64,000 bases of DNA from Deltaproteobacteria bacterium (GTDB taxonomy: Bacteria > Desulfobacterota > GWC2-55-46). Shown here piece after piece: positions 10,104 to 58,091 of the stretch. The notes under the pieces are model-generated. The model worked only from the letters and a program-made list of their open reading frames with translations, was not told the DNA's origin and searched no databases. Position numbers and translations under genes: made by a program. The stretch's first letter is position 1; every line of letters starts with the position of its first letter. Location of the stretch: positions 33,651 through 97,650 of the forward strand of contig JACRNO010000009.1 of the NCBI GenBank assembly GCA_016234855.1. Reading direction: 5' to 3'.

Positions 10104-10167
10104 CGCGGTTGCGGCGGATTTAGTATCTTGTCCAACGTTATGAGTAAGAAAAATCCCGGAGGCAGCT

Positions 10168-11063: not shown

Positions 11064-11079
11064 GGCTTCGGGGGTAATA

Positions 11080-12093: not shown

Positions 12094-12229
12094 AAGCGGC
12101 GCTAGTCTCCGGACTTCTTTCGCACCCGGTCTCGTTTGAGATAGATTTGAGAGAATGGATCTTTTGTGGCGCGTGAAGGAGTCGCAGTCCAACCAACCCG
12201 AAGGCGCATTTTTTTGGCGCAAAGCCTTT

Positions 12230-13135
12230 ATGTCCACTTCAACATACATTATCGTCCTTAACTGGAACGGTGTAGATGACACCATTGAGTGCATACAATC
12301 CCTAAAAAAGATGACGTATCGGGATTATGCGATTCTCCTCGTCGATAACGCTTCGACGGACGGCTCGGTCGCTGTTTTAAGCAAAAAGTTCCCGGAAATA
12401 AAGATTATCGAGGCCCATAAAAATCTCGGGTTTGCGGGAGGCGCCAATCTTGGCATGAGGCACGCCTTGAGCGCGGGCGCGCAATATCTCATACTCCTGA
12501 ATAACGATACGGTCGTTGCCCCTGATTTTGCCGGTGAACTCGTGAAAGCCGCTGAGAACGATAAAAAAGCGGGAATACTCTCTTCCAAGGTATATTTTTA
12601 TGACAGGCCGGGCGTGCTCTGGTATGCCGGAGCAAGTTTTAACAGGTGGCTTGGATGGGGCAGGCACAGGGGTTTTGGTTCAATGGATATCGGACAATTT
12701 GACAGGCTTGAACCGACCGGCCGGCCTTGCGGCTGTGCGCTATTGGCAACAAGGGAATTCTGCGAGAAGGCCGGACTTCTTGAAGAGGAATACTTTTGTT
12801 ACTGCGAGGATATGGAGTGGGGGATGAGGGCAGGGAATCTTGGGTATGCGACGCTCTTTGTTCCATCTTCAAAGGTATGGCATAAGGTCTCAAGGTCGAC
12901 AGGCGGCCCTGCAACCGCAAAGGCGCTCTATTATTCCGTGAGAAATACCTTAAAGTGTCTTGATACTGACGCTCCGCTGCCGTTTGGCCTGCGTCATATC
13001 AGGATATTGCTTGTGTTGGTAATTAGCATTTTAAGTCTTTTTACGATGAATATCCCGAAGGTCCTGGGGCTTAAACGAATTTTTCATGGCGTCATGGATT
13101 ATTTAGAAGGTAAGTTTGGCGAACTCGTAGAATAA
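12230..13135 (+). CDS. GT2 glycosyltransferase (rhamnosyltransferase-like)
   Basis: IIVLNWNG, LVDNASTDGS, NLGFAGGANLG, LLNNDT, YCEDMEWGMR, VWHKVSRS; start chosen at MSTSTY. Confidence 0.88.
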   Translation: MSTSTYIIVLNWNGVDDTIECIQSLKKMTYRDYAILLVDNASTDGSVAVLSKKFPEIKIIEAHKNLGFAGGANLGMRHALSAGAQYLILLNNDTVVAPDFAGELVKAAENDKKAGILSSKVYFYDRPGVLWYAGASFNRWLGWGRHRGFGSMDIGQFDRLEPTGRPCGCALLATREFCEKAGLLEEEYFCYCEDMEWGMRAGNLGYATLFVPSSKVWHKVSRSTGGPATAKALYYSVRNTLKCLDTDAPLPFGLRHIRILLVLVISILSLFTMNIPKVLGLKRIFHGVMDYLEGKFGELVE

Positions 13136-13150
13136 TTGAATCTCTGCTCA

Positions 13151-13281
13151 ATGAAGATACTTGTGGCGGGGCCGGGTTTATCGGCGCGCACGTCTGCAAG
13201 GCGCTTGCCGCGCGGGGTTACGAGCCTGTGGTCTTCGATAACCTTGTTTTCGGTCCCGCTTGTGTGCAGGCGTTCTTATGA
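13151..13281 (+). pseudogene. galE: Frameshifted, truncated 5' remnant of UDP-glucose 4-epimerase
   Basis: ATG AAG ATA CTT GTG then shifted frame GAGFIGAHVCKALAARGYEPVVFDNL, stop at 13279-13281; matches the GalE N-terminus. Confidence 0.75.
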
Positions 13282-13336
13282 AACGAGTTGCGCTTTTTCC
13301 GGCGTTGCGGCATATATGCGGGCCGTAAAAGTTTAA

Positions 13337-14338
<1,002 letters not shown>

Positions 14339-14436
14339 ACGGCAGGAAGCTGGCGGAAAGTGTTTGAACGCGCCTTCTGAGAAAGAGAGGCTCTAACCAA
14401 TGAGTCATATAAATTGTTCGATAGAAGGATAGCGTC

Positions 14437-15390
14437 TTGCGAAAGGTCCTGATTACAGGCATAGCCGGTTTTGTGGGCTCGCATCTCGCCGAGCGCCTTT
14501 CAGGCTCGTTTGAGGTCTGGGGCACGCACATAGACGAGAACAACGGCAACCTCGACGGCATAGGAGGGCTCAACCTGATACGTTGCGACCTGCTTGACGC
14601 TAAGGCGGTAACCGAGGCCGTCTCCCGCGTCAGGCCCGCGGCAATCGTCCATCTCGCCGCCCTTTCCACGCCCGCGTATTCGTTTGAAAACCCGGCTGAG
14701 ACGCTCAGGAACAATATCTTCTCCACGCTCAATATATTCGAGGCAACGGCAAAGGCCTGCCATGAGGCCGTGATACTCAATATCGGTTCCGGCGACGAGT
14801 ACGGAGACGTGCGCGAGGCAGACCTGCCGCTCAAGGAGACGGCGCAGTTGAGGCCGTTGAACCCTTATTCCGTAAGCAAGGTCACGACAGACCTGCTTGG
14901 CTTCCAGTACTGGAAGAGCAAGGGGCTTAATATCGTCCGCTGCCGCCCGTTCAACCACATCGGGCCGCGCCAGGCCCCGCACTTCGTGGCCCCTGCCTTT
15001 GCAAGGCAGATAGCAGAGTGCGAGGCGGGTCTCAAGGATGAGAAGATCATAACGGTCGGCAATCTCGAGTCTTCCAAGGACTTTCTCGACGTCAGGGACG
15101 TTACGTCCGCCTATGAGCTCTTGATTGAGAAGGGCGAGTATGGCGAGGTCTATAATATCTGCTCCGGCCGGGTCGTAAAGATACGCTGGATGCTCGAGAC
15201 CCTGCTCTCGTTCTCAAGCGAGAGCATAGAGGTCGTGGAGGATGCGGCAAAGATGCGTCCCACGGATTCGCTTGCCATATACGGCGACGCATCTAAACTT
15301 CGCGCCCTGGGCTGGGAGCCGCATTATCCGCTTAGTGAGGGGCTCAGGGCGCTGCTGGATTTCTGGAGGCTGAAGACTCGGCAGATATGA
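14437..15390 (+). CDS. rmd: GDP-4-dehydro-6-deoxy-D-mannose reductase (GDP-D-rhamnose synthesis)
   Basis: VLITGIAGFVGSHL, IGSGDEYG, PLNPYSVSK, RPFNHIGPRQ...FARQIAECEAG, GNLESSKDFLDVRDV; adjacent to gmd. Confidence 0.85.
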   Translation: MRKVLITGIAGFVGSHLAERLSGSFEVWGTHIDENNGNLDGIGGLNLIRCDLLDAKAVTEAVSRVRPAAIVHLAALSTPAYSFENPAETLRNNIFSTLNIFEATAKACHEAVILNIGSGDEYGDVREADLPLKETAQLRPLNPYSVSKVTTDLLGFQYWKSKGLNIVRCRPFNHIGPRQAPHFVAPAFARQIAECEAGLKDEKIITVGNLESSKDFLDVRDVTSAYELLIEKGEYGEVYNICSGRVVKIRWMLETLLSFSSESIEVVEDAAKMRPTDSLAIYGDASKLRALGWEPHYPLSEGLRALLDFWRLKTRQI

Positions 15391-15476
15391 GTTATCACTT
15401 GTCCGTTATCGGCAATCAGCAAAGGTTTTCATCTTAATGTTTTCGTTCACCGATAACCTAGTTAAGCCTGCGGGGA

Positions 15477-16619
15477 GTGGTCTTGAGGATAGGCATAAAC
15501 GCGTTGTACCTTATCCCTGGTAAGGTGGGCGGGAGCGAGACGTATATAAGGAACCTCGCGCGGGGCCTTGCGCAGGCAGGCTCAGGCCATGAATTCTTCA
15601 TCTTCATAAACAAGGAGAGCGCCGGGGTCTTTGAGACGGAGGCGCCCGGCATGCAGGTGGTGCAATGTAACGTGGCCGCCGCATCAAGGCCGGCAAGGAT
15701 CATCTGGGAGCAGTTCGTCCTCCCGTTGCAGTTACGGCGTCTCAAAATAGATGTCCTTCTTTCAGCCGGCATGACCACGCCGTTTGTCAGCGGCGTGCCG
15801 TCCGTGGTTGTCATATACGACCTTCAGCACAGGGCGTTGCCGCATAATTTCGCGTGGTGGTACCTCCAGTTTCTCCGCTCAATCATCTACCTCAGCGCAA
15901 AGAGCGCCGACAGCGTTATAACCATATCCAATAAATCCAGGGACGAAATCTCGCATCTGTATGATATCGCGCCGGAGCGCATAGCCGTGACCCATCTTGC
16001 GGCTGACGAAAGGCTTTTTTACAGGAGGTCTGCATCCGAGGTCGCGGCCGCGCGGCAAAGATACGGCCTGCCCGAGCGTTTCATATTGTATGCGGCCTCA
16101 AGCCTGCCGCACAAGAACTATGAGCGGCTGCTTGCGGCCTTTAAGAGAGTATCTGTTGAGGATAGGGGCGTGACGCTACTTCTTGCCGGCGCAAGGTCAT
16201 ACGGCATGGAGGCGATAGAGGAGGGCATACGCAGGCTCGGTCTCTCGGACAGGGTTGTTTTTTCCGGATGGCTGCCGCATGAAGACCTTCCTGCTGTTTA
16301 CTCAGCGTCTGAGCTTCTGGTCTTTCCGTCGCTTTATGAAGGCTTCGGCATGCCGGTGCTTGAGGCGTTCGCATGCGGGGTTCCGGTGGTCTGCTCGAAT
16401 ATCGCGCCGTTGACCGAGGTCGCCTCGGACGCCGCCGTCTACGTCGACCCGCTTGACGAGGCGGATATCGCAAAGGGAATTTTATCGGTTTTGAGCTACG
16501 CAGGGCTTAGAGACAGGCTCATCAGGGACGGCCTCCGGCGCGTTGCGGCGTTCAGTTGGGCCAAGACCGCGGCTCAGACGCTTGAGGTCCTTGAAAGGCA
16601 TGCGGGGGCGCGATTATGA
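15477..16619 (+). CDS. GT4 glycosyltransferase (MtfB/WbpY-like)
   Basis: GGSETY, PHKNYERL, FPSLYEGFGMPVLEAFACGVPVVCSN. Confidence 0.9.
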   Translation: MVLRIGINALYLIPGKVGGSETYIRNLARGLAQAGSGHEFFIFINKESAGVFETEAPGMQVVQCNVAAASRPARIIWEQFVLPLQLRRLKIDVLLSAGMTTPFVSGVPSVVVIYDLQHRALPHNFAWWYLQFLRSIIYLSAKSADSVITISNKSRDEISHLYDIAPERIAVTHLAADERLFYRRSASEVAAARQRYGLPERFILYAASSLPHKNYERLLAAFKRVSVEDRGVTLLLAGARSYGMEAIEEGIRRLGLSDRVVFSGWLPHEDLPAVYSASELLVFPSLYEGFGMPVLEAFACGVPVVCSNIAPLTEVASDAAVYVDPLDEADIAKGILSVLSYAGLRDRLIRDGLRRVAAFSWAKTAAQTLEVLERHAGARL

Positions 16620-17407
16620 GTATGCCCCGCATCTCCGTCATAACGCCTTCCTTTAATCAGGGCAGGTTCATAGAGCGGACTATCGAGAGCGTCCTCGGGC
16701 AGGGCTATCCGAACCTTGAGTATATCGTCGTAGACGGCGGCTCTACGGACGAGACCGTCTCGATATTGCGGCGTTATGAACCCAGGCTCGCTTGGACTTC
16801 CGAAAAGGACAAGGGCCAGTCCGACGCAATAAACAAGGGCATCAGCCGGGCTACCGGAGAGATTGTCGCATATATAAACTCGGACGACGTCTATGAGCCG
16901 GGCGCGCTCGAGCGCGTGGCCGCGTACTTTACGGCCAACCCGTCGGTGATGTGGCTTACCGGACGCTGCCGCATCATAGACGAGGAAGACCGCGAGATGC
17001 GCGGCGTTATAACCGCGTACAAGAATTTCTTGTTAGACCGTTATAGTTATAATATACTTCTGGTGACTAATTGTATCTCTCAGCCTGCGACATTTATGCG
17101 GGCCGGGCTCTTTAAAGAGTATGGTTTATTCGACGTAAATCAGCACCGCGTTATGGATTACGAATATTGGCTCCGTATCGGCGCCCGGCACGAACCGGGC
17201 ATATTGAAAGAGTATCTGGCGGCCTTTCGCGTCTACCGCGCCTCCAAGACATCGAGCGCGTTTAAAGACACGTTCAAAGAGGAGTTGGAAGTCGCGAGAA
17301 TATATTCTCATTCGTGTCTCTTAAACGGACTTCACCGGTTGAGTAATATCGGCATCTGCGCCGCATATACGGCGCTCTCTCTGACCACGGGACGCCGAAC
17401 GAAATGA
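16616..17407 (+). CDS. GT2 glycosyltransferase (WfgS/WcaE-like)
   Basis: ISVITPSFNQGRFIERTIESV, VVDGGSTD, GQSDAINKG, YINSDD, MDYEYWLR. Confidence 0.9.
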   Translation: MSMPRISVITPSFNQGRFIERTIESVLGQGYPNLEYIVVDGGSTDETVSILRRYEPRLAWTSEKDKGQSDAINKGISRATGEIVAYINSDDVYEPGALERVAAYFTANPSVMWLTGRCRIIDEEDREMRGVITAYKNFLLDRYSYNILLVTNCISQPATFMRAGLFKEYGLFDVNQHRVMDYEYWLRIGARHEPGILKEYLAAFRVYRASKTSSAFKDTFKEELEVARIYSHSCLLNGLHRLSNIGICAAYTALSLTTGRRTK

Positions 17408-18873
17408 CGGAGGTCATTCGCGCAATGCAGAAGAGAGCAAGCAGGAAGAGGGCGGACGCCGCCCCTGTCTTTTACGCGGCGATACTTTCCGGCGGCATAG
17501 GCAGCAGGTTCTGGCCCCTGTCAAGGGAGTCGACCCCGAAGCAGATATTGAAGGTCGTTGGCGACGAGAGTCTTCTGAAATCCACCATAAGCAGGCTCCA
17601 TCCGCTCATACCGCACGAGCGGGTCATGATAGTAACTAACTCGCGCCAGGCCGAACTGATAAGGCTTCATCTGTCGTACGAAGGCAGCGCGGTCAAGCCC
17701 GGGTACATAGTCGAGCCGGTTGGCAAGAACACGGCCCCGGCCATAGGGCTTGCGGCCCTGCGCCTTTCTCAGAGCGACCCGGACGCGGTCATGGCGGTGC
17801 TTCCGGCCGACCATATCATAGGAGAATCCAAGCCCTTCCGCGACGCGATGAAGGCCGCGTATACGGCCGCGCTTGACGGGCACCTTGTCACCTTCGGTGT
17901 CGTGCCGACTTCTCCTGAGACGGGTTATGGTTATATAAAGTCGAAGAAGTCCGTCGTCAGGAATATCGACGGCTATGCCATCCGTCCCGTAGAGCGTTTC
18001 GTGGAGAAGCCCGATATAAAGACGGCGCGCCGGTTCCTGGCCGCAGGCGGCTACTTCTGGAACAGCGGCATCTTTGTTTGGAAGGTCTCCAGGATACTCG
18101 AGGAGATAGAAACGCACCTGCCCGGCATATACCGCGGCCTTATGGAGATAAAAGACGGCGCGGATATCGGCGCTGCATATCAGCAGATGCAGTCGATATC
18201 CATCGACCACGGCATACTTGAGAAGGCCTCGGACGTCGTCGTCATACCGGCGGATTTTCCATGGTCGGACATGGGGAGCTGGTCGTCTTTCGCGGACATC
18301 ATCAAGCCGGATGAGAACGGCAACGTCGTAAAAGGGCGCGTCGTGGATATCGGAAGCTCCAACTCCATCATCATGGGGTGCGACCGCGCCGTGGCCACCA
18401 TCGGTCTCAAGGACTTCATCCTCGTCGATACCCCCGATGCCACCCTCGTGTGTCCTAAGGAGAGGGCGCAGGAGGTGAAAGACCTCGTAGGGCTCCTCAA
18501 GAAGAAGGGCTATACGGAGCACGAGGAGCACAGGACCGTCGAGAGGCCATGGGGCTCTTATACGCTGCTTGAGAAGGGCGACGGCTATAAGATCAAGAAG
18601 ATAAGCGTCCATCCCAAGAGGCGGCTTTCCCTGCAGACGCATAAAAAGCGCAGCGAGCATTGGGTCGTCATAGCGGGTCTTGCCCGCATACAGAGGGGAG
18701 AGGAGATTGTCGAGATAGGCGTGAACCAATCCACCTACATCCCGCGCGGGGTAAAGCACAGGCTGGAGAACCCGGGCATTGCCCCGCTTGAGATTATAGA
18801 GGTTCAAAGCGGCGAATACGTGGAAGAGGACGATATCGTGCGCCACGAGGACGATTTTGAGCGCGGCGCCTGA
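17404..18873 (+). CDS. manC: Mannose-1-phosphate guanylyltransferase / mannose-6-phosphate isomerase
   Basis: ILSGGIGSRFWPLSR...PKQ, EPVGKNTAPAI, LPADH, ETGYGYI, FVEKP, WSDMGSW, cupin RPWG...HKKRSEHWVV. Confidence 0.95.
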   Translation: MTEVIRAMQKRASRKRADAAPVFYAAILSGGIGSRFWPLSRESTPKQILKVVGDESLLKSTISRLHPLIPHERVMIVTNSRQAELIRLHLSYEGSAVKPGYIVEPVGKNTAPAIGLAALRLSQSDPDAVMAVLPADHIIGESKPFRDAMKAAYTAALDGHLVTFGVVPTSPETGYGYIKSKKSVVRNIDGYAIRPVERFVEKPDIKTARRFLAAGGYFWNSGIFVWKVSRILEEIETHLPGIYRGLMEIKDGADIGAAYQQMQSISIDHGILEKASDVVVIPADFPWSDMGSWSSFADIIKPDENGNVVKGRVVDIGSSNSIIMGCDRAVATIGLKDFILVDTPDATLVCPKERAQEVKDLVGLLKKKGYTEHEEHRTVERPWGSYTLLEKGDGYKIKKISVHPKRRLSLQTHKKRSEHWVVIAGLARIQRGEEIVEIGVNQSTYIPRGVKHRLENPGIAPLEIIEVQSGEYVEEDDIVRHEDDFERGA

Positions 18874-18896
18874 CAAGGTAAAGAGCGAGGTGAGTT

Positions 18897-19337
18897 ATGG
18901 GAATTTTATCACGGCTTAAAGTCGTCATTGTCCTTGCGTTCGCGGTATCCGGGTTGTTTGTCGCAACTGGCGGCGCGGCCCGCGCTGCCGAGGGCGCCGA
19001 ATGGCGGTTCTATCACAACAGCGGCGATAACTCCATGCTCTACTATGACATGGAGAGCGTCACGGCCCCGTCCAGGGGCACGGCCGACGTCTGGACAAAA
19101 CTCGAGGTGAGGGGCAAGGTCTACTCGCTCGCCCTCTATGAGATAAGCTGCGTCGACAGGAGGCTCCGCACCCTAATCAAGTACGGCTATGACAACGCGA
19201 GCAAGTCCATCATACCTCTTCCGAATTCGGACGAGACCTATCCGACGCGCTGGATGTATATTGTGCCGGAGACCTCGGAGGCCAAACTGGTCAAGTTCAT
19301 CTGTCCGCTGGCCAAGGAGAAGGAGACGGCGAACTGA
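18897..19337 (+). CDS. Secreted surface-adhesin E-like protein
   Basis: Signal peptide; YYDMESV...DVWTK...YEISC..R..R...W..IVPETSEAKL..FIC pattern. Confidence 0.6.
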   Translation: MGILSRLKVVIVLAFAVSGLFVATGGAARAAEGAEWRFYHNSGDNSMLYYDMESVTAPSRGTADVWTKLEVRGKVYSLALYEISCVDRRLRTLIKYGYDNASKSIIPLPNSDETYPTRWMYIVPETSEAKLVKFICPLAKEKETAN

Positions 19338-19457: not shown

Positions 19458-21038
19458 ATGTCCGGGGATAGCAACGGCAGGCGCGAGGAGTGGGGCTCGA
19501 GATGGGGGTTGATACTGGCAATGGCGGGCAACGCCATCGGGCTGGGTAACTTCCTGCGTTTTCCGGTACAGGCCGCTGGCAACGGCGGCGGCGCGTTCAT
19601 GATACCCTACTTCATTTCCCTGGTCCTGCTGGGCGTGCCGCTCATGTGGATAGAGTGGGGCCTGGGCCGTTACGGCGGCTCGCTCGGGCACGGCACGTCT
19701 CCGGCCATATTCGACGCCCTGTGGAAGAATCGCGTTGCCAAGTATATCGGCATCCTCGGCGTATTCCTGCCGCTTGTCGTTCTCGTATATTACATCTACA
19801 TCTGCTCGTGGACGCTGGCCTTCAGCGTCTTTTCCGCCATTGGCAGCTACCCTGTCGTGCAGGACGGCTCCGCTGCCGTTTCAACGGCGGCCTACCTTGC
19901 CCCGTACCGCGCATATCTCAATGACTATATCGGCGCGTCGTCAGGCAACGTGATATTTACCCCGTTGCCCATTGCTTATCTCTTTTTCGTAGGCACGCTC
20001 GTGCTGGGTATGGCCATTCTCGGCAAGGGCGTTGCCAAAGGCATAGAGGTCTTGAACAAGATAGCCATACCCGCGCTCTTCATAATGGGCTTCGTGTTAT
20101 TCATAAGGGTGTTGAGTTTGAAGTCTCCGCTTGACCCGAATATAACGGCTGTCAACGGCCTTGCATTCCTCTGGGAGCCGGACATGAGCGGGCTTTTTAA
20201 CGCAAAGGTCTGGCTTGCGGCCGCGGGCCAGGTCTTCTTTACGCTCTCGCTCGGCATGGGCGCCATAATGACGTATGCATCTTATGTGAAGAAGAAAGAC
20301 GATATCGCGCTGGCCGGTCTTGCGACTGCCTCTCTTAACGAGTTTGCAGAGGTCGTCTTCGGCTCTACGATAGCCATAGTCGCGGCAGTGATATTCTTCG
20401 GGTCTGAAGGCGCCTCCGTCATAGCCCGGGACGGCGCGTTCAGCCTCGGATTCATCAGCATGCCCGCGATATTCACGCATATCGGCTATGGCGGATTCTT
20501 CGGGTTTCTCTGGTTCCTGCTCCTCTTCTTCGCCGGTATCACGTCCGTGGTGGCGTTAGCCCAGCCGGCCATAGCCTTTTTTGAAGACGAATTGGGTTGG
20601 ACGCGGAGGCGCTCGGTCGTAACGCTCGCCGTATTCTTCTTTGTCGTCGCGCACCTGCCGATGCTCGTCTCCGGCGCCCTCGACGAGATGGACTTCTGGG
20701 CGGCGACCCTCGGGCTCGTGATACTCGCGCTCTTCGAGGTCATTATATTCTTCTGGATTTTCGGCGCGGACAAGGCGTGGGAAGAGATAGCCCACGGCGG
20801 ACGCATCAGGATACCGCGCGTCTTCTTCTATATAATGAAGTATATTACGCCGCTCTTTCTCCTCGTCATACTCGTCGCGTGGAGTTATGACCAACTGCCG
20901 GGAATACTGTCGAAGAGCGATACGGGAGTCTGGGCGGCGCGAGCCTTTCTGCTCGCGCTCCTCGGCGCGCACGTTTGGGCGGTCAGGGTCGCATGGAGGC
21001 GGCGGCGGATGAGACAATTTGCGCAGGTGCAGTCATGA
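19458..21038 (+). CDS. Sodium-dependent transporter, neurotransmitter:sodium symporter (NSS) family
   Basis: REEWGSRWGLILAMAGNAIGLGNFLRFP, NGGGAFMIPY, VWLAAAGQVFFTLSLGMG, LNEFAEV. Confidence 0.93.
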   Translation: MSGDSNGRREEWGSRWGLILAMAGNAIGLGNFLRFPVQAAGNGGGAFMIPYFISLVLLGVPLMWIEWGLGRYGGSLGHGTSPAIFDALWKNRVAKYIGILGVFLPLVVLVYYIYICSWTLAFSVFSAIGSYPVVQDGSAAVSTAAYLAPYRAYLNDYIGASSGNVIFTPLPIAYLFFVGTLVLGMAILGKGVAKGIEVLNKIAIPALFIMGFVLFIRVLSLKSPLDPNITAVNGLAFLWEPDMSGLFNAKVWLAAAGQVFFTLSLGMGAIMTYASYVKKKDDIALAGLATASLNEFAEVVFGSTIAIVAAVIFFGSEGASVIARDGAFSLGFISMPAIFTHIGYGGFFGFLWFLLLFFAGITSVVALAQPAIAFFEDELGWTRRRSVVTLAVFFFVVAHLPMLVSGALDEMDFWAATLGLVILALFEVIIFFWIFGADKAWEEIAHGGRIRIPRVFFYIMKYITPLFLLVILVAWSYDQLPGILSKSDTGVWAARAFLLALLGAHVWAVRVAWRRRRMRQFAQVQS

Positions 21039-24219: not shown

Positions 24220-24966
24220 CTATTCGACGAGCCGCAGTCTTATTAATTCCTTTTTTACGAATGCCTCTATCCGGTTCATGTCTTTTGCGGCAATGGCGGT
24301 GAACATGACGCCGCCGCCGCAAAACCGCGTGGTGCGCCTCTTCTCGGCCGTTGTCCAGCGCACGACGCCGTCTACGGCGAGTGTCTCGTCGGTGCCGGGC
24401 AAAGCGAAGCGCATGCGGATCGTCGTGCCCTTTACGAGCGGCGCTTCGGTGGTCAGGTATACGCCCTTGGCGCTGATGTTGAGTATGAAACCGTCGTGCG
24501 CGCCGTCGTTCGCGGCGTAGTCGGCGGGTATGGAGACGGGCACGCGCTCGCGCTGGCTCACGCCGGCCGCCGCCTTTTCACTGAAGAGTATCTGGTTTGA
24601 GCGCAGGATGAGTTCCTGCGGCGAGAAGTCCTTCGTAAGAAAGCACGCGGCGCCGAGCCGGGTGAGCCTGCCGCGCACGTCGCCCGTCTGGAATATGCTC
24701 GATATGACGATGACCGGAGGCCGGCCCGCGATCCCATGCTCGCTCATCCATGCGAGCACCTGAAACCCGCTCATATCGGGCATGTCGAGGTCAAGGGTCA
24801 TGAGGTCGTACTCCCCTGACCGCGCCCCGAGTATCTCGACGGCCTGCGTGCCGTTTCTGGCGTATTCCACCCTGTGACCGGCCTCGGTCAGTATGTCCCC
24901 GAGCTTCCTCCTGAAGAACATGCTGTCGTCGGTTACAAGGATATTTTTGGCGTCTTCTGTTATCAT
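24220..24966 (-). CDS. Response regulator receiver domain fused to a PilZ domain
   Basis: ILVTDDS...LDLDMPDMSG...VIVISS...LTKDF; C-terminal RVPV...LNISAKGVYL...VVRW...GGGVMF. Confidence 0.85.
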   Translation of the reverse strand: MITEDAKNILVTDDSMFFRRKLGDILTEAGHRVEYARNGTQAVEILGARSGEYDLMTLDLDMPDMSGFQVLAWMSEHGIAGRPPVIVISSIFQTGDVRGRLTRLGAACFLTKDFSPQELILRSNQILFSEKAAAGVSQRERVPVSIPADYAANDGAHDGFILNISAKGVYLTTEAPLVKGTTIRMRFALPGTDETLAVDGVVRWTTAEKRRTTRFCGGGVMFTAIAAKDMNRIEAFVKKELIRLRLVE

Positions 24967-25097
24967 CGCTACCGAAGGCCTGAATATAAAGGTCTCCCGT
25001 CATGGCGCGCGGTCTTCGTGGTGCGGGGTGTTGTGTAATGAAGATGACGGTCGTGCGTCGGGGGTCTGCGCTGCGGGCCTGTGGTGTCCGATGTCTA

Positions 25098-25126
25098 ATG
25101 ATATACCATGAAATCTTTTAAGTCAA
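25098..25126 (-). promoter_or_regulatory. Sigma70-type promoter for the REC-PilZ gene
   Basis: Minus strand TTGACT-17 nt-TATCAT, about 125 nt upstream of the ATG. Confidence 0.55.
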
Positions 25127-25248
25127 AGGCCTTAGCCTCCGGGTAATTGGGTATCCGTAGCGCAGACCAATAGGACTGCATCTTTGCCGCGGGCACGACC
25201 GCTTGTTTCAGGGCAAATCCCCCGCCCCACTTCACAAGCAAGGCGCGC

Positions 25249-25350
25249 TTTCTCCTCCCCTTATTTAAGGGGAGGCAGGGAGGGGTTATGTTTTGCGCGC
25301 CGCAGATTAACTCCCCCCCCGCCCCCTCTTTAAAAAGAGGGGGAGCTTTT
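25249..25350. repeat. REP-like block, inverted counterpart of 23927-24126
   Basis: ctccccttatttaaggggag and ccccctctttaaaaagaggggg hairpins. Confidence 0.75.
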
Positions 25351-25412
25351 AAATCCCCCGCCCCACGCCAATGGGCGTGGGTACCCCGCCCCCGTGTGCG
25401 CTCGTGTGCGCT

Positions 25413-25450
25413 AACGTTATGTCTTCGGCGCAACGTTATGTCTTTAGCGC
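25413..25450 (+). repeat. 19-bp tandem duplication
   Basis: aacgttatgtcttcggcgc followed by aacgttatgtctttagcgc. Confidence 0.65.
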
Positions 25451-25558: not shown

Positions 25559-28500
25559 TCAGGCAACGCGGCGCCTCAGGACGGCCTTGCGGGCCTCTGA
25601 CGCCGCAAGGAGTATGAAGGGGAAAGAGGCGAGAAGCGCCCAGTCCCTGATGCCAAGCGGGGCAAAGCCGAAGATGCGCGCCAAGGGCGGCGTGTAAACA
25701 AGCAGAAGCAGGAGCGTAATCTCGGCGGCTATGCCGAAGAGGACGAGCTTGTTGGTGAAGAGGCCGGTCCGCAGGACGGAGGCGCGCTCGGTGCGGCAGG
25801 CGAAGACGTTGCCTATCTGCGTGGCGACTATCCCGGCGAAGCTCATGGTCGTGGCTGCCGCGTATATGGTCCCGGTTTCGGCCATGGCAAGCCCCGGGCT
25901 CCAACCGCTCGCAAGGTAGACGAAGAAGAAGCCTGCCATGCACAGCGCCGCCTCTATCGGGCCGAGGAACAGGTACGCGAGCGCAAGCGTCTTCCAGTCG
26001 AGCAGGCGCTGCGTCCTGGGCCTCGGCGCCTGCTTCATTATCCCGGCCTCCGGCGGCTCGACCCCGAGGCCCAGGGCCGGCATGACGTCGGTGCCGAGGT
26101 CGACGGCGAGTATCTGCATGACGGTAAGCGGCAGCGGTATCCTGAAGATGACGAAGGCTATGAACGGGACTATTTCCGGGATGTTGCTCGCAAAGATATA
26201 GGTGACGAACTTCTTTATATTCGAATAGACCGCCCTGCCTTCGCGCACGGCCTCCACTATCGAGGAGAAGTTGTCGTCGGTCAGGATTATCTCGGCGGAC
26301 TCCCTGGCCGCGTCAGACCCGCGCAGCCCCATGGCTATGCCGATGTCGGCCTTTTTCAGGGCCGGGGCGTCGTTTACGCCGTCGCCCGTTACGGCCACGA
26401 CCTCGCCGAGGGATTGCAGGGCCGTAACGACCATGAGCTTGTCCTTCGGTTCGACGCGCGCGAATATCGTCTCGCCTTCGCGTAAAATCTCGCGCAGCGC
26501 CGCATGGTCGAGCCCGTTCATCTGCGCGCCGGTAATCACGCGGCCCGATGGGCACACGCCTATCCGGGCCGCGATGGCGGCCGCGGTCAGACTGTAATCG
26601 CCCGTGACCATTATGACGCGTATGCCCGCGCTGTGGCAATCCGCGACCGCGGAGTTGACCTCCGGCCGTGGCGGGTCGTGCATGGCTATGAGCCCGAGCA
26701 TGGTAAGCCCGCATTCGATGTCATCGGCCGCATACTTCTCCGCCCTGTCTATTTCCCTGAAGGCCACGGCAAGTATGCGCAGGCCCTTTGAGGCCATCTC
26801 GTCGTTATGCTTCAGGAGGGCGCTTATCTCGTCGCGTGAGGCCGGCGCCACCTTGCCGTTACGCAGGATATGCGTGCAGAGCGCGGCCAACTCGTAAGGC
26901 GAACCTTTTACAAACGCGATAAGGCGGCCTGTTGCGTCAGGCATGGCGGGTTCGTTGATGGGAAGGCCGAAGGCGTGGATGGTCGTCATCCTCTTCCGGA
27001 CGCGTTCGAACGGAATCTGCGCGGCCCTGCGAAAGGCCGTCTGGAGTTTGGACGGCTCAAGTCCGGCCTTCATTGCCGCGATTATGAGCGCGCCCTCGGT
27101 CGGGTCGCCTGATATGCGCCACTCATCCGTCTTTTTATCAGGGGCGATAAGAGAGGCGTTATTGCAAAGGGCCGCAGCCGTCAGGAGGCGCGTGGCCCCG
27201 CTGTGCTCAAGCGCGGTCTTGTCAAGGCTTTTTTGGCCTATGGAAAACCCGCCGGCCGGCTCGTAGCCGTTCCCGCTGACGTCAATCGTCTGCCCGTCGA
27301 CGTAGAGCTTCTCGACGGTCATCCGGTTTTGCGTAAGCGTGCCGGTCTTGTCCGTGCATATCACCGTCGCGCTGCCGAGGGTCTCGACAGCCGAGAGTTT
27401 CTTGATGAGCGCGCCCCGGCGCGCCATGCGCTGCACGCCCATGGCAAGGGAGAGCGAGACCGTGGGCAGAAGTCCTTCCGGCACGTTGGCGACGATTATG
27501 CCGATGGCGAAGATGAAGCTCTCGGCCGGCCCCAGTCCCGCGGCCAGCCAGCCGAGGAAGAAGAAGGCGACCCCGAGGCTTACGGCGATGAGCGTGACGG
27601 TGCGCGTGACGGCGACAAGCTCTTTTTGCAGAGGGCTCATCTCCGGCCTTATGGCCTGCGTAAGGTAGGCGACCTGGCCTATCTCGGTATTCATGCCCGT
27701 GGCGGTGACGAACATCCTGCCTTCGCCGGATACCACGGTTGTGCCTGCGAAGACGATATTCGGCACCTCCGTCCATATAAAGGCGCCGCCGTCGGCCACA
27801 GGCTCGGCTATCTTGTATATGGGGCGGGACTCGCCTGTAAGCGCGCTGTTGTCCACGCGCATATCCGCCGCCTCTATCAGCCTGCCGTCTGCCGGGATGG
27901 CCTCGCCCTCGGAGAGCAGTATCAGGTCTCCGGGCACGAGTTTTTCAGCATCCATCTCCGTGATCGCGCCGTCGCGCACCACGCGCACCTTCTTCGGCAG
28001 GAGTCTTGTCAGCGCCTCGACCGCCTTTTCCGCCTTGTATTCCTGCAGGAAGCTGAAGGCCGCGTTTATCACTATGACCATGAATATGGCCCAGCCGAGT
28101 TCCGGCATGCCCGCGACGAACGACATCACGCCGCCCGCCCACAGGAGTATGGCGAAGAGGTTTGTAAAGAGGTTGTGCAGGAAGTCGATGAGGAGCGTGC
28201 CGCGCCTTATCCTGACGATGGTATTAGGCCCGGCGAGCTTTTCGCGTCTGGCGGCCTCGGCCGAGGTAAGGCCGTCGGGCGAGGTCTCAAGCTCGCCCAT
28301 TACCTCTTCCCTGGTGAGAGGGACGTAATACGAGCGGGCCGAGCCTTCGGATTTGCGAAGCGCGTCTCTTACCTCGTTCTCGTTCCGGGCGTTGAGAACG
28401 GCATGGTGGAATGCCTTGTCGAGGAGGAGACCTTCTATCTTTGAAAGGAGTTGCAGGTGCGTGCCGCTCTCCTTCATCGGGGAGACTATCATGAAGAAGA

Positions 28501-28783
28501 TGCGCACGGGCCGCCGTTTTGTAGGGTGGGGCACCTCGCGCTGTGAAATCGCCATGCCGACTGCCGTTTCTTTGACTTCTTCCGAGATGCAGTGAAAGAC
28601 CGCGGACTTGGTTCCCGCGAGCACGCCCTCCATGCTCTCGTGCTCGAGCAGGTCGCACATGGTCTTGCTCTTCACTCCGCCTGAGGCCTCGGCGATGCCG
28701 TTGGACAGGGCGGCGAGCACCTTCTCATGGTCCCTGGCCTTTATCCCCGGGATGACGCACTTGAGCATGTCGATTAGATTCAT
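25559..28783 (-). CDS. P-type ATPase, Na+,K+-ATPase-like (P2C-type), with an N-terminal PTS EIIA-like domain
   Basis: DKTGTLT, DNSALTGES, IGIIVANVPEGLL, SNIPE, DLGTD, GDGVNDAPALKKADIG; first ~145 aa LLEHES...AVFHC...RIFFMIVSP...HLQLLSKI resemble EIIA. Confidence 0.9.
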   Translation of the reverse strand: MNLIDMLKCVIPGIKARDHEKVLAALSNGIAEASGGVKSKTMCDLLEHESMEGVLAGTKSAVFHCISEEVKETAVGMAISQREVPHPTKRRPVRIFFMIVSPMKESGTHLQLLSKIEGLLLDKAFHHAVLNARNENEVRDALRKSEGSARSYYVPLTREEVMGELETSPDGLTSAEAARREKLAGPNTIVRIRRGTLLIDFLHNLFTNLFAILLWAGGVMSFVAGMPELGWAIFMVIVINAAFSFLQEYKAEKAVEALTRLLPKKVRVVRDGAITEMDAEKLVPGDLILLSEGEAIPADGRLIEAADMRVDNSALTGESRPIYKIAEPVADGGAFIWTEVPNIVFAGTTVVSGEGRMFVTATGMNTEIGQVAYLTQAIRPEMSPLQKELVAVTRTVTLIAVSLGVAFFFLGWLAAGLGPAESFIFAIGIIVANVPEGLLPTVSLSLAMGVQRMARRGALIKKLSAVETLGSATVICTDKTGTLTQNRMTVEKLYVDGQTIDVSGNGYEPAGGFSIGQKSLDKTALEHSGATRLLTAAALCNNASLIAPDKKTDEWRISGDPTEGALIIAAMKAGLEPSKLQTAFRRAAQIPFERVRKRMTTIHAFGLPINEPAMPDATGRLIAFVKGSPYELAALCTHILRNGKVAPASRDEISALLKHNDEMASKGLRILAVAFREIDRAEKYAADDIECGLTMLGLIAMHDPPRPEVNSAVADCHSAGIRVIMVTGDYSLTAAAIAARIGVCPSGRVITGAQMNGLDHAALREILREGETIFARVEPKDKLMVVTALQSLGEVVAVTGDGVNDAPALKKADIGIAMGLRGSDAARESAEIILTDDNFSSIVEAVREGRAVYSNIKKFVTYIFASNIPEIVPFIAFVIFRIPLPLTVMQILAVDLGTDVMPALGLGVEPPEAGIMKQAPRPRTQRLLDWKTLALAYLFLGPIEAALCMAGFFFVYLASGWSPGLAMAETGTIYAAATTMSFAGIVATQIGNVFACRTERASVLRTGLFTNKLVLFGIAAEITLLLLLVYTPPLARIFGFAPLGIRDWALLASFPFILLAASEARKAVLRRRVA

Positions 28784-28789
28784 GAATAT

Positions 28790-28798
28790 ATTATATCA
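28790..28798 (-). promoter_or_regulatory. Extended -10 promoter, likely leaderless transcript for the ATPase
   Basis: Minus strand TGA-TATAAT followed by 6 nt and then the ATG at 28783; no SD sequence. Confidence 0.55.
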
Positions 28799-28832
28799 GA
28801 AGACTGAGGCGTTGAAAAACGGCGCGCCCCGC

Positions 28833-28861
28833 TTGAACTTTTAGTAATTACTGATTATAAT
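28833..28861 (+). promoter_or_regulatory. Sigma70 promoter with a palindrome in the spacer
   Basis: TTGAAC-17 nt-TATAAT; perfect palindrome AGTAATTACT at 28843-28852; ATG 9 nt after the -10 box. Confidence 0.6.
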
Positions 28862-28870
28862 AGGCAAGCG

Positions 28871-29527
28871 ATGAAGAAGATAAAGGTGTTCATAGCGGAC
28901 GATCATCCGGTCTTGAGAAGCGGCATAAAGGCCATCTTCGCCGAGCGTACGGAATACGAGGTCGTCGGCGAGGCGGACGGCGGCGTAGAGGCGCTCAAGA
29001 TGATATTCACCGTCAAGCCGGACGTCGTGATCATGGATATCACCATGCCGGACCTTAACGGCATAGAGGCGACCAAACGCATCCTCGAAGAGCGGCCCGA
29101 GGTCAAGGTGGTGATGCTCTCCATGCACACGGACGTCTTTCACGCCATCGACGCCTTCCGGGCCGGCGCCATGGCGTACGTGCTTAAGGACGCGGGCGCG
29201 CCTGAGCTCTTTCAGGCCGTGGAGAAGGTGCTGGCCGGTGAAAAATTCGCCAGCCCGGCCGTGACCGCCGGGCTGCTCAACGACTTTGTGGACACCATCA
29301 GGAAGGAGCAGAGCAGCGACCCTTTCGACACGTTGAGCGCAAGGGAGAAAGAGGTCTTGAGGCTGATAGCGGACGGGTTGACCAGCAAGGAGGTGGCTGA
29401 GAGGCTCTTTATCTCGGTTGCGACCGTCAAGAGCCACCGCAACAACCTTATGAGGAAACTCAACTGCAATGAGATGGCCGGTCTCATAAAGATAGCCATC
29501 CGCAAAGGGCTTGTCACGCCGGAGTAG
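28871..29527 (+). CDS. NarL/LuxR-family DNA-binding response regulator
   Basis: IADDHPVLRSG, VIMDITMPDLNG, LSMH, YVLK, LSAREKEVLRLIADG...ISVATVKSHRNNLMRKL. Confidence 0.93.
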   Translation: MKKIKVFIADDHPVLRSGIKAIFAERTEYEVVGEADGGVEALKMIFTVKPDVVIMDITMPDLNGIEATKRILEERPEVKVVMLSMHTDVFHAIDAFRAGAMAYVLKDAGAPELFQAVEKVLAGEKFASPAVTAGLLNDFVDTIRKEQSSDPFDTLSAREKEVLRLIADGLTSKEVAERLFISVATVKSHRNNLMRKLNCNEMAGLIKIAIRKGLVTPE

Positions 29528-31502: not shown

Positions 31503-31853
31503 ATGAATACCGTTACCATAGTGCTTCAGGACGCGCCTTACGGAAACGAGAAGGTCTGGAACGCGCTGCGCCTGTCGCAGGCGCTTCTGTCCGTCGGGTC
31601 GAAGGTGCGCATATTCCTATACGGCGACAGCGTCATAGCCGCCAAGACCGGGCAGACGCCTCCCAAGGGTTATTACAATATCGGCGAGATGCTCAAGGGG
31701 CTTGTGGACAGGGGCGTCGAGGTGCGCTCGTGCCTTACCTGCACCAGCGCGCGCGGCCTTACGCAGGCCGACTTTGTCGAAGGCGTCGTCGTCGGCAAGA
31801 CGCTTGACCTCGCGCATTGGATAGCCGAAGGCGGGCAGGTGATGGTCTTTTGA
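31503..31853 (+). CDS. DsrE/F-like (YchN-type) protein
   Basis: APYGNEKVWNALRL, FLYGDSV, GYYNIGEML, CLTCTSARG. Confidence 0.88.
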   Translation: MNTVTIVLQDAPYGNEKVWNALRLSQALLSVGSKVRIFLYGDSVIAAKTGQTPPKGYYNIGEMLKGLVDRGVEVRSCLTCTSARGLTQADFVEGVVVGKTLDLAHWIAEGGQVMVF

Positions 31854-41357: not shown

Positions 41358-41903
41358 TTATTTCGAATCGTGACCAACCGCCGTCTGTTGAGCGTATCGT
41401 TCGCGCATCTGCGTGATGAGCCTTATCATGCGCGGCTGTCTGTAGTCCGGGTATGTCCACGGCAACGCCCGCCAGGCGCCGCCTTCGAACCTTAACGTAA
41501 GGTCGGCGTATACGCCGAGTCCGATTGATATCCTGTGCGAAAAATCCTTGCATGAGGCGAGCACGAACCTGGGCAGGGCGACGTAGCCGGGGTCGATGTT
41601 CACGCGCCGGGCGCCGTCCCCGTTCGGGTTGAGATAGCCGTCTTCAACCCCGTTCGTAAAAATCTTTATCCCGGCAAGCGATTCCTGGTTGATAAGCCTT
41701 TCAAACGAGCATACCCTGCGCCTCAGTCCCGGGCCGAACTCTTGCGAGTAGTAGTCGGTTGACGTAAATGCAAACGGCTCGCTCAGTATGTCAAGCGGCC
41801 CTAAGCGTTCGCTGAGACGTCTGAAGACCTCCGTAAATATCCCCGGGTCGTTGGTAAAGACGCTTGCGAAGAGTTTTACCTTCGCGGCCTCGCGCGGTCT
41901 CAT
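41358..41903 (-). CDS. DUF4416 family protein
   Basis: FTSTDYYSQEFG, IKIFTNGVE, RRVNIDPGYV, LASCKDFSHRI, FPW-like LPWTYPDY. Confidence 0.85.
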   Translation of the reverse strand: MRPREAAKVKLFASVFTNDPGIFTEVFRRLSERLGPLDILSEPFAFTSTDYYSQEFGPGLRRRVCSFERLINQESLAGIKIFTNGVEDGYLNPNGDGARRVNIDPGYVALPRFVLASCKDFSHRISIGLGVYADLTLRFEGGAWRALPWTYPDYRQPRMIRLITQMRERYAQQTAVGHDSK

Positions 41904-41915
41904 GCGCTTCGATGC

Positions 41916-42926
41916 CTACTCGGATAGCCGGAGCTTTAGCCCGGCCGTTGCGGCGTCCATAAGCTCCTCCGGCGTGAGCGTGGCCGTGCCGACCTTGCCT
42001 ACGACGACCCCGGCGGCGAAGTTCGCGAGCACCGCGGCCTCGCGGAACGACGCGCCTGAGGCGAGGGCGAGGGCGAGGGTGCCGATGACGGTATCTCCGG
42101 CGCCGCTTACGTCGAAGACCTCTTTGGCGACCGTCGGGATATGCGTCTCCGAGTCCGGTTCAAAAAGGCTCATCCCGTGCTCCCCGCGCGTGATGAGCAG
42201 CGCGGCGCATCCGAGCTTGTTGAAGAGGACCTCACCTGCCCGGTGCAGAGACCCGTTGTCGCTTATCTCTACCCCGGAGGCCTGAGAGGCCTCAAGGTTA
42301 TTGGGCGTGACTATGGTCGACCCGGCGTAATAATCGAAGTGTTCGACCTTCGGGTCAACGGCCACGGGTTTGCCGAGGCTGCGGCAGACGGCAATCGTCT
42401 GCTCGACGAGGGTCTTGGTTATAAGCCCCTTTGCGTAGTCGGATATCACCACCACGTCGACGTCCTTGACCGCCTTGCGGATATACGCGAAGACCTTTGC
42501 CGTGCAGGCCGGGTCTATCTTGTCTCTCATCTCGCGGTCGACGCGCACGACCTGCTGGCTGTGGGCGATGACGCGGGTCTTGATGGTCGTCGGTCTCTTT
42601 GCGTCAATGATGATGCCGGCCGAAGAAATCTTCTTATCCTTCAGGGCGCCTATAAGCCTCTTGCCGTCGTCGTCCTTGCCTATAATGCCCGTGACGCGCG
42701 ACCTGCCCCCGAGGCTGTGGATGTTGTTGACGACGTTGGCGCTGCCCCCGAGCATGAGGGACTCGGACGTGACCGCGACGACCGGCACCGGGGCCTCCGG
42801 CGAGATGCGCGCGACCTTGCCCCAGATGAAGTGGTCCATGATGAGGTCGCCGATGACGAGCACCCGCGCCTTGCTGAACCGGCTGATTATGGCGTGCGCG
42901 CGTTTGTGGCTGAGAATTCTACGCAT
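41916..42926 (-). CDS. rfaE1: D-glycero-beta-D-manno-heptose-7-phosphate kinase (HldA/RfaE1)
   Basis: VIGDLIMDHF..G.V.RISPEAPVPVV, GGSANV, SDYAKG, TPNNLE, VFDVSGAGDTV. Confidence 0.93.
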   Translation of the reverse strand: MRRILSHKRAHAIISRFSKARVLVIGDLIMDHFIWGKVARISPEAPVPVVAVTSESLMLGGSANVVNNIHSLGGRSRVTGIIGKDDDGKRLIGALKDKKISSAGIIIDAKRPTTIKTRVIAHSQQVVRVDREMRDKIDPACTAKVFAYIRKAVKDVDVVVISDYAKGLITKTLVEQTIAVCRSLGKPVAVDPKVEHFDYYAGSTIVTPNNLEASQASGVEISDNGSLHRAGEVLFNKLGCAALLITRGEHGMSLFEPDSETHIPTVAKEVFDVSGAGDTVIGTLALALASGASFREAAVLANFAAGVVVGKVGTATLTPEELMDAATAGLKLRLSE

Positions 42927-44046: not shown

Positions 44047-44048
44047 CT

Positions 44049-58088: not shown

Positions 58089-58091
58089 GGT

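Follow-up and report, generated by a model that had tools for sequence, protein, structure and literature searches.

A fusion of a PTS EIIA-type domain with a Na,K-ATPase-like pump in a groundwater deltaproteobacterium and its relatives: a candidate for pump control in cis

Why should a bacterial ion pump carry a domain of the phosphoenolpyruvate (PEP)-dependent phosphotransferase system (PTS) at its N-terminus, and which ions would such a pump move? This question is raised by a minus-strand gene in a 64,000-nucleotide stretch (positions 33,651 to 97,650 of contig JACRNO010000009.1, assembly GCA_016234855.1; hereafter, the window) of a Deltaproteobacteria bacterium (Desulfobacterota), which is a metagenome-assembled genome (MAG) from groundwater. 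The gene product joins an enzyme IIA (EIIA) domain to a P2-type ATPase. An earlier sequence-only reading of the locus had proposed a single-chain, PTS-gated Na+(H+)/K+ pump. In the present analysis, the fusion, the Na,K-type pump, and the EIIA fold were borne out, whereas the altered third Na+ site and the missing C-terminal tail proved not to be peculiar to this protein, and its EIIA domain is not a canonical PtsN. We slightly favour the view that the protein is a beta-less K+/Na+(H+)-type single-chain pump with a cis-acting regulatory EIIA domain.

The open reading frame (ORF) is uninterrupted from its ATG start, as read from the ORF list and the translation (Table 1). Pfam placed PTS_EIIA_2 at residues 9–144, with 60.3 bits in the full protein and 65.7 bits for the isolated domain (cut-off 27), followed by Cation_ATPase_N (157–221), E1-E2_ATPase (261–456), Cation_ATPase (538–639), Hydrolase (677–813), and Cation_ATPase_C (883–1067). 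The general P-type ATPase model (HAD-IC, TIGR01494) matched at 312 bits against a cut-off of 62.3, and the catalytic motifs were intact: CTDKTGTLT (with D478), TGES (316–319), MVTGD (725–729), and TGDGVNDAPALKKA (799–812). The motifs quoted in the sequence-only reading were each found at their place in the translation, namely AVFHC (61–65), DNSALTGES (311–319), YIFASNIPE (862–870), ILAVDLGTD (891–899), VATQIGN (986–992), and AAEIT (1019–1023), together with IGIIVANVPEGLL. The full-length AlphaFold2 (AF2) model had a mean predicted local distance difference test score (pLDDT) of 77.4 and a predicted template-modelling score (pTM) of 0.65, and its top fold match was Na,K-ATPase in the E1.3Na+ state (8jbk, TM score 0.80). 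In Foldseek searches with this model, the matches to SERCA and SPCA equalled those to Na,K-ATPase, and the pump types are not separable in this way.

An artefact of assembly or gene calling, in which a free ptsN-like gene was joined to a pump gene, is a natural concern for a groundwater MAG. Besides the uninterrupted ORF, three lines of evidence practically refute it. First, in a collection of 5.8 billion proteins, the architecture of PF00359 plus ATPase domains recurred in 117 of the 120 best clusters at 90% identity, which matched over the full length at 51–89% identity; these at least 117 homologous clusters comprised sequences from NCBI, JGI, ENA, and Logan. Second, a 4593-nt Logan contig from run X1 covered positions 27484–29000 with 2 differences and ran across the junction of the two halves, which was also crossed by contigs of a strain about 91% identical from a separate study (X3). 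Third, the fused sequences (19 rows) were monophyletic with a support of 99 in a tree of the pump body. The fusion reported by the sequence-only reading is thus real and not chimeric. Since all 19 sequences form one clade, a single origin is indicated, and the data fit one ancient fusion maintained by selection. The named carriers were Deltaproteobacteria (Desulfobacterota), Nitrospinae, Nitrospirota, and Brocadiaceae/Planctomycetes or anammox MAGs. In one case, an automatic JGI name stated both the EIIA and the pump halves.

To which branch of the P2-type ATPases does the pump belong? PDB sequence matches were Na,K-ATPase alpha (534 bits), Listeria LMCA1 (474 bits), SPCA1 (465 bits), and SERCA (404–428 bits). 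The window encodes a second P2-type ATPase (60880–63576, plus strand; 898 residues without EIIA, 40% identical to the fused pump), whose motifs AAIPEGL, CNIGE, and NLVTDG are of the Ca type, and this protein served as an internal P2A control. The NCBIfam subfamily models gave opposite patterns for the two pumps, although neither protein reached the cut-off of any of them. The Na,K/H,K-ATPase alpha model (IIC, TIGR01106; cut-off 946.1) scored 603.8 bits with the fused pump and 499.9 bits with the second, the PMR1-type Ca model (TIGR01522) scored 600 and 777.8 bits, and the SERCA-type model 548 and 671.3 bits, respectively. TIGR01106 was therefore the best-scoring subfamily model for the fused pump, by a margin of only about 4 bits over the PMR1-type model, whereas the PMR1-type and SERCA-type models were the best for the second. 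MgtA (P3B) membership was not indicated either (371 bits; cut-off 610.75).

The phylogeny of the pump body was inferred from 100 sequences with IQ-TREE (LG+G4, quick search) and rooted on MgtA. Besides 17 members of the fused family and 76 relatives of the pump drawn from GTDB species genomes, it comprised a plasmid pump of Picosynechococcus, two PMCA-type pumps (so named by PGAP) and two MgtA pumps from plasmid records, the P2A pump of the window, and human ATP1A3, the one eukaryotic sequence, which was transcribed from its alignment with the fused pump; SERCA, ENA, and PMA1 references lay outside its scope. The 76 relatives included two EIIA carriers (L001 and L009), which we added to the count of the fused family. 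All DLGTD-type prokaryotic pumps, the fused family, and human ATP1A3 fell into one clade of 95 rows (Shimodaira–Hasegawa-like approximate likelihood ratio support 98), and the window P2A pump, the PMCA-type pumps, and MgtA were placed outside it. Human ATP1A3 grouped with pumps of Amylibacter, Methanococcoides, and one MAG each of Nanoarchaeia and Nitrospirae (support 95). Unfused prokaryotic DLGTD pumps, whose N-termini are short and without EIIA, were sister to the fused clade. The fused protein is accordingly not classed with the P2A Ca2+-ATPases of the SERCA/PMR1 type: it scored below their cut-offs, differed from them in its motifs, and stood outside their group in the tree. Its sequence places it in the Na,K/H,K-ATPase (P2C-like) group, within the branch formed by prokaryotic pumps. 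This agrees with the sequence-only reading, which had called the pump Na,K-ATPase-like rather than SERCA-like and had named a P2 phylogeny as a check; the tree, the contrast with the P2A pump in the model scores, and the ion-site residues all point the same way.

The ion-binding residues were compared with those of human alpha3. M4 was identical to Na,K-ATPase over IGIIVANVPEGLL, and E327, S775, N776, E779, D804, D808, Q923, and E954 were kept in the window protein. Across the 105 members of the fused family, the equivalents of N324, E327, Y771, E779, D804, D808, Q923, and E954 were invariant, and those of N776 (103 of 105), T807 (102), and S775 (99) nearly so. In the Na+- and K+-bound crystal structures of Na,K-ATPase, the kept residues of M4–M6 make up cation sites I and II. 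On this basis the protein would be a two-site monovalent-cation exchanger working with K+ versus Na+ or H+. The third Na+ site differed: D926 was replaced by Asn and T772 by Ile in every family member, and T774 by Ala in 95 of the 105. In addition, the C-terminus was about 11 residues shorter than that of alpha3 and the KETYY tail was absent. The M7–M8 loop has about 13 residues (965–978) versus about 37 (872–909) in alpha3; this region was unaligned and lacked SYGQ. Because of this short loop, the docking site of the beta subunit appears to be absent and the pump is classed as beta-less.

The sequence-only reading had pointed to T774 to Ala, D926 to Asn, and the missing KETYY as features of this protein. 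The substitutions and the absence were confirmed, with T772 to Ile as an addition, but they are not specific to it. Ile at 772 together with Asn at 926 was found in almost the whole prokaryotic group, including the nearest relatives of the human pump; 7 of the 8 rows of the human-pump clade had Asn at 926, as did 22 of 23 in the Nitrospira-type group. Because the pattern extends over almost the whole prokaryotic group, the altered site III is not peculiar to the fusion, and by this comparison it is an ancestral-looking prokaryotic state.

The same data bear on a quite improbable alternative, in which the substrate is divalent (Ca2+, Mg2+, or Mn2+), or Na+ is exported with no counter-transport of K+, the likeness to Na,K-ATPase being uninformative on the substrate. 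The near-equal scores on TIGR01106 and TIGR01522, both below cut-off, the equally good fold matches to SERCA and SPCA, and the absence of the site-III Asp and the tail are consistent with it, as are the names of relatives, which their sources call Mg2+- or Ca2+-ATPases. These names, however, are automatic annotations. M4–M6 correspond residue for residue to Na,K/H,K-ATPase, unlike the Ca-pump motifs AAIPEG, CNIGE, and NLVTDG of the second pump; P2A, PMCA-type, and MgtA pumps fell outside the group in the tree; and the genome already encodes a PMR1/SERCA-like pump.

A further pointer to the cation came from genes encoding proteins similar to the K+ transporter KimA, which in 3 of the 80 species loci adjoined unfused relatives of the pump. 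These encode amino acid–polyamine–organocation (APC) permeases in a Nitrospirae MAG (L025, 12978–13976), Vulcanococcus (L043, 1037–2059), and an Anaerolineales MAG (L030, 8292–8963). In an anammox-like Logan contig (L094, 5894–7861 and 8361–9944), about 360 residues were fused in frame to an EIIA-pump gene of the canonical type that lacks its first ~10 residues, and KimA (6s3k, E = 5e-48) was the sole PDB match of these residues. The pump of this contig is split into two ORFs, and the arrangement may be a true rearrangement or may result from misassembly. The KimA neighbours are a weak hint that the pump group takes part in K+ homeostasis.

What, then, is the N-terminal domain? The sequence-only reading had described the first ~145 residues as EIIA-like with a His at the phosphoacceptor position. 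Consistent with the Pfam match, the sole PDB sequence matches of the domain were IIA-Ntr/PtsN structures (2a0j, 1a6j, 3urr, and 4gqx), and in the alignment with E. coli IIA-Ntr, His64 fell on His73 and His109 on His120. AF2 modelling of residues 1–155 (102 sequences) gave a pLDDT of 83.7 and a pTM of 0.82. The best Foldseek matches of this model were IIA-Ntr of Neisseria, Burkholderia, and E. coli (2a0j, 3urr, and 1a6j; TM 0.72–0.80), followed by IIA-Mtl, the two classes together ranging over TM 0.67–0.80; the cytoplasmic domains of the SLC4 proteins Band 3, AE2, BTR1, and NDCBE were also matched (query-based TM score, TMq, 0.69–0.73). The N-terminus is therefore predicted to adopt the IIA-Ntr fold, as the sequence-only reading expected. 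The acceptor His64 was kept in 102 of the 105 family members and His109 in all 105. In L009 (Desulfobaccia), the acceptor His was present and the second His was replaced by Gln.

The match to PtsN itself was poor. The window domain scored 23.8 bits on TIGR01419 (cut-off 138.7) and 22.7 bits on NF008145 (cut-off 221), the PtsN equivalog models, and 45 bits on the FruA-IIA model, far below the cut-off. It carries His48 instead of the conserved active-site Arg (Arg57 of PtsN, Arg49 of IIA-Mtl) and Phe63 instead of the Pro before the acceptor His. From its sequence, the domain is an EIIA of the Fru/Mtl/Ntr class that is not classifiable as PtsN; the EIIA likeness and the acceptor His given by the sequence-only reading hold, and the domain of the window subclade is not a canonical PtsN. 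An exhaustive search with the EIIA region in 1.84 billion representatives returned only 7 proteins at E = 1e-10, mostly fragments of the same family, and a word-indexed search returned the family itself only. Beyond the family, the nearest EIIA relatives were free proteins of about 150 residues. Longer ones were a cation:proton antiporter (CPA) Na+/H+ exchanger with a C-terminal EIIA (P0207), EIIA-PilZ (P0171), HPF (S30AE)-EIIA (P0204; HPF is a product of the rpoN operon), and helix-turn-helix (HTH)-EIIA (P0252) proteins. The CPA-EIIA fusion parallels the control of YcgO by PtsN in E. coli.

The pump-body tree divided the family into two clades, each with a support of 100, which coincided with two types of EIIA active site. 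The canonical type, R-E...[AV]FPH-A-R, was found in 32 of the 105 members and keeps R...PH.R; for one member, PF00359 gave 106 bits and the PtsN equivalog 75 bits. The derived type, H-E-S...A-[VI]-F-H-[CTS]-[LIF], was found in 63 members including the window protein, and has no Arg after the His. The column of His48 contained His in 69, Arg in 33, Lys in 2, and Leu in 1 of the 105 sequences, and it co-varied with Phe or Pro before the acceptor His. Identity within the derived clade was 48% for EIIA and 67% for the pump body, within the canonical clade 64.5% and 76%, and between the clades 27% and 59%, respectively. By these values, EIIA is under purifying selection within each subclade, and its remodelling between the clades suggests that, in the lineage of the window, the switch was re-tuned or its input changed.

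Here, we propose a model of how the two halves may work together. In each cycle the pump would exchange two monovalent cations, most likely taking up K+ and expelling Na+ or H+, and the EIIA domain, as a built-in regulator, would do in cis what PtsN does to K+ transporters in trans. Unphosphorylated EIIA would dock on the cytoplasmic headpiece and inhibit the pump: a tether of about 9 residues joins it to the A domain, whose rotation in the E1–E2 cycle it could restrain. Because the A domain must rotate in that cycle, EIIA would be well placed as a brake and release. Phosphorylation of His64 via PEP, EI, and HPr or NPr would release EIIA, and pump activity would then track the cellular state with respect to PEP/pyruvate and nitrogen/carbon. 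In the derived subclade, with His48 and Phe63, the kinetics of phosphotransfer or the signal that is read may differ from those of canonical members. E. coli PtsN in its unphosphorylated form binds YcgO, a K+/H+ antiporter, and inhibits it; the binding is weaker once PtsN is phosphorylated (PMC11808508). The sign of control in the fused protein is nevertheless a guess, and EIIA could equally well inhibit or activate the pump. If the model is extended, the family would provide the first case of a P-type ATPase that PEP-dependent His phosphorylation gates in cis, a beta-less two-site K+/Na+(H+) exchanger set directly by the regulatory PTS; together with the CPA-EIIA fusions, it would mean that PtsN-type control of monovalent-cation homeostasis is ancient, widespread, and repeatedly hard-wired, the derived His/Phe site being a re-tuned switch. 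We hold this extended version tentatively, as somewhat more doubtful than not.

Several results weigh against the proposal. On the side of the pump, the ion specificity is read from residue conservation alone, and the full-text literature searched, with subscription journals outside the scope, yielded no prokaryotic Na,K-ATPase-like pump that has been characterised. No Rfam family, including the cyclic di-AMP riboswitch, was detected at the gathering threshold in the window or in 12 fused and 9 unfused loci. The full-length AF2 model, read by its per-residue confidence, gave no usable interface between EIIA and the pump; its pTM was 0.65, and the linker was disordered, with pLDDT values below 50. 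On the side of the PTS, the acceptor His was replaced by Arg or Asn in three members of the canonical subclade (P0093, P0102, and P0103), and the genes for EI, HPr, and HprK were absent from the window (about 50 ORFs) and from within 8–10 kb of nine fused relatives; a tblastn search for HPr at related loci with an approximate E. coli query, a weak probe, gave no match. Finally, the scores of the window EIIA on the PtsN and FruA-IIA models are far below cut-off, its active-site Arg and Pro are replaced, and because this derived site goes along with an identity between clades of 27% for EIIA as against 59% for the pump body, phosphotransfer may possibly have been altered or lost.

These last points lead to a different explanation of the domain, which we regard as unlikely and yet as the most serious to be weighed: in the window subclade, the EIIA-fold domain would no longer accept phosphate from the PTS and would serve for regulation or autoinhibition independently of phosphorylation, as a module sensing pH, a ligand, or a protein partner, comparable to the N-terminal domains of SLC4. 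The derived site in 63 of the 105 members (Arg to His48, Pro to Phe63, no Arg after the His), the low model scores, the divergence between the subclades, the lack of PTS genes near any locus examined, and the Foldseek matches to Band 3, AE2, BTR1, and NDCBE agree with it. Both active-site His residues, however, are near-invariant even in the derived subclade, which is hard to explain unless the phosphorylation site has a role; a His in place of the Arg could still contact the phosphoryl group; and PTS genes are usually unlinked to their regulatory targets. We retain the cis-regulated exchanger as the preferred reading. The His-less members and L009 may be natural 'locked' variants, possibly useful in experiments.

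The coordinates of the features are listed in Table 1.

Table 1 Features of the fused gene and its flanks (window coordinates)
Feature	Position	Strand	Basis and remarks
Whole gene, EIIA–P2-type ATPase fusion	25559..28783	-	1074 aa + stop; ORF, Pfam; start Met aligned with M1 across the family
PTS_EIIA_2 domain, residues 1–147	28343..28783	-	Pfam match 9–144; AF2 and Foldseek
Linker SARSYYVPL, residues 148–156, EIIA to Cation_ATPase_N segment of A domain	28316..28342	-	Domain borders; pLDDT <50 at 149–151 (full-length AF2)
P2-type ATPase body, residues 157–1074: A, P, and N domains and 10 transmembrane helices	25559..28315	-	Pfam, TIGR01494, AF2 fold
Asp478 codon, catalytic phospho-aspartate of DKTGT	27350..27352	-	Sequence; invariant in family
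His64 codon, predicted phospho-acceptor, within AVFHC	28592..28594	-	Aligned with E. coli IIA-Ntr His73
His109 codon, second active-site His, within THLQLLS	28457..28459	-	Aligned with E. coli IIA-Ntr His120
His48 codon, at conserved-Arg position of EIIA-Ntr/Mtl	28640..28642	-	Alignment to 1a6j; derived in window subclade
M4 ion-site segment AIGIIVANVPEGLLPT, equivalents of V322, A323, N324, V325, and E327	27461..27508	-	Na,K-ATPase alignment
M5 ion-site segment YIFASNIPEIVP, Y771, T772 to I, T774 to A, S775, N776, E779	26165..26200	-	Alignment, site table
M6 ion-site segment ILAVDLGTDVMPAL, D804, T807, D808	26072..26113	-	Alignment, site table
M8 segment VATQIGN, Q923 kept as Q989, D926 to N992	25808..25828	-	Alignment, site table
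Glu1021 codon, E954 equivalent, M9	25721..25723	-	Alignment; family conservation
Promoter-like TTTTCA-17-TG-TATAAT	28790..28818	-	Ends 6 nt before ATG; consensus scan, pattern match only
Terminator-like hairpin directly past the stop codon	25541..25557	-	Sequence
NarL/LuxR-type response regulator, divergent	28871..29527	+	Pfam Response_reg and GerE, NCBIfam; 87 bp from pump

Because the promoter-like site ends so close to the ATG, the mRNA may be leaderless, and from its flanks the pump gene looks monocistronic. An ORF of 112 residues (25095–25433) was considered as a partner gene and rejected: it had no family match and a composition unlike that of proteins, and it is preceded by a terminator-like hairpin. 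The 87-bp intergenic region (28783–28871) between the pump and the divergent response regulator contains two -10/-35-like sites ending 6–9 nt before the ATGs, with the palindrome AGTAATTACT between them; the short distances suggest leaderless mRNAs for both genes. The same divergent pairing was seen in an 89%-identical relative (L084), and no histidine kinase was found near the regulator. Just downstream of the pump, a protein with a response-regulator receiver and PilZ (24220–24966, minus strand) is encoded, as also in L084; an EIIA-PilZ protein was among the EIIA relatives described above. In three Desulfobacterota relatives of 59–66% identity (L081, 356–5664; L082, 6155–9875; L092, 4140–7879), a divergent CheR and a Cache/HAMP/PAS hybrid sensor kinase lie upstream of the pump and DsrE-TusA sulfur-relay genes downstream, of which the window keeps only DsrE (31503–31853). 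Other relatives had unrelated neighbours such as pyrophosphatases and V-ATPase. As the neighbours vary between relatives, gene neighbourhood was dropped as a clue to the substrate.

Of the approximately 50 annotated ORFs of the window, most belong to lipopolysaccharide (LPS)/O-antigen glycosyltransferases, an oligopeptide ABC system, and the second pump, of the P2A type. A transporter of the sodium:neurotransmitter-symporter (SNF/NSS) family (19458–21038, plus strand) lies 4.5 kb from the pump and is not conserved beside relatives; its presence shows Na+-coupled uptake in this organism. Two large envelope-glycan clusters (1–19000 and 41900–60700) include a Wzt-type ABC exporter, a 1397-residue multi-domain glycosyltransferase, GDP-mannose dehydratase/epimerases, ManC, many GT4 and GT9 heptosyltransferase-like genes, a PMT_2 family (ArnT-like) glycosyltransferase, and a PAP2 phosphatase.

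The components of the fused protein are each known singly: control of K+ by PtsN, EIIA on a non-PTS transporter (LacS), terminal domains of P-type ATPases, and prokaryotic Na,K-like pumps. The combination of an EIIA of the Fru/Mtl/Ntr class with a P2C-like pump is present in databases only as automatic annotation. The sequence-only reading knew of no characterised example of the fusion, and no paper on an EIIA–P-type ATPase fusion was found within the literature scope given above. New in the present analysis are the rooted placement of the pump, the evidence that the fusion arose once, the generality of the site-III differences among prokaryotes, and the division of the active sites into two classes, of which the window protein has the derived one, as well as the internal P2A control, the read-based check of the junction, and the negative riboswitch result. 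The known regulation of P-type ATPases works through tails, small subunits, and phosphorylation of Ser/Thr; control by a folded phospho-His domain of the PTS, placed on the A-domain side, would, if true, be a new mode. For studies of structure and mechanism, the family also provides a bacterial relative of Na,K-ATPase that is simple and single-chain; it is beta-less and has Asn at D926, which bears on the origin of the third Na+ site and of electrogenicity. In addition, the gene fusion is direct physical evidence linking the regulatory PTS with K+/Na+ homeostasis outside Proteobacteria; the PTS has hardly been studied in Desulfobacterota, Nitrospinota, Nitrospirota, and anammox Planctomycetota.

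The fused protein can be compared with six known systems. Free EIIA-Ntr (PtsN) controls K+ transport in trans through YcgO, TrkA, and KdpD in Enterobacteria and rhizobia. A link of PtsN, KdpD, and KdpFABC is reported (PMC9239096). The fused domain shares with PtsN its class, fold, and phosphorylatable His, and the targets of PtsN are likewise monovalent-cation transporters. In contrast, it is covalently joined to a P2-type ATPase rather than acting on Trk, Kdp, or a CPA antiporter, it scores far below the PtsN cut-off, and its active site is derived. With the animal Na,K- and H,K-ATPase alpha subunits (P2C), the pump has the ion-site residues of M4–M6, Q923, and E954 in common, and it groups with human alpha3. 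It differs from them in lacking the SYGQ beta loop and KETYY, in having Asn for D926 and Ile for T772, in scoring below the TIGR01106 cut-off, and in the EIIA domain that replaces the N-terminus. The unfused Na,K-ATPase-like pumps of bacteria and archaea have the same body, with the pattern Y-I-x-S-N-E, DLGTD, Q..N, and E, and are also beta-less, but their N-termini are short and without EIIA. In a bioinformatic survey of such pumps, the alpha/beta assembly motif was absent from the prokaryotic sequences (PMC9609216).

Three further systems resemble the fusion in the position of a regulatory domain. LacS of streptococci and lactobacilli has a fused EIIA-Glc-like domain, whose HPr-dependent phosphorylation modulates transport (PMC10710835). 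Both proteins thus carry a PTS EIIA domain on a non-PTS transporter; that of LacS, however, is of the Glc-type superfamily and sits at the C-terminus of a secondary sugar transporter, whereas the domain described here is of the Fru/Mtl/Ntr type and sits on a primary ion pump. The SLC4 anion exchangers (Band 3, AE2, and NDCBE) also have an N-terminal EIIA-like fold on an ion transporter, but they are eukaryotic and their transporter fold is unrelated; to our knowledge, their cytoplasmic domains lack the active-site histidines. Finally, the terminal autoinhibitory (R) domains of PMCA and of plant and fungal H+-ATPases are thought to act on the cytoplasmic headpiece (PMC10654040). Like the EIIA domain, they are regulatory domains at the terminus of a pump; they are short, mostly disordered, and controlled by calmodulin, 14-3-3 proteins, or Ser/Thr phosphorylation, whereas the fused pump carries a folded PTS domain with a predicted phospho-His site.

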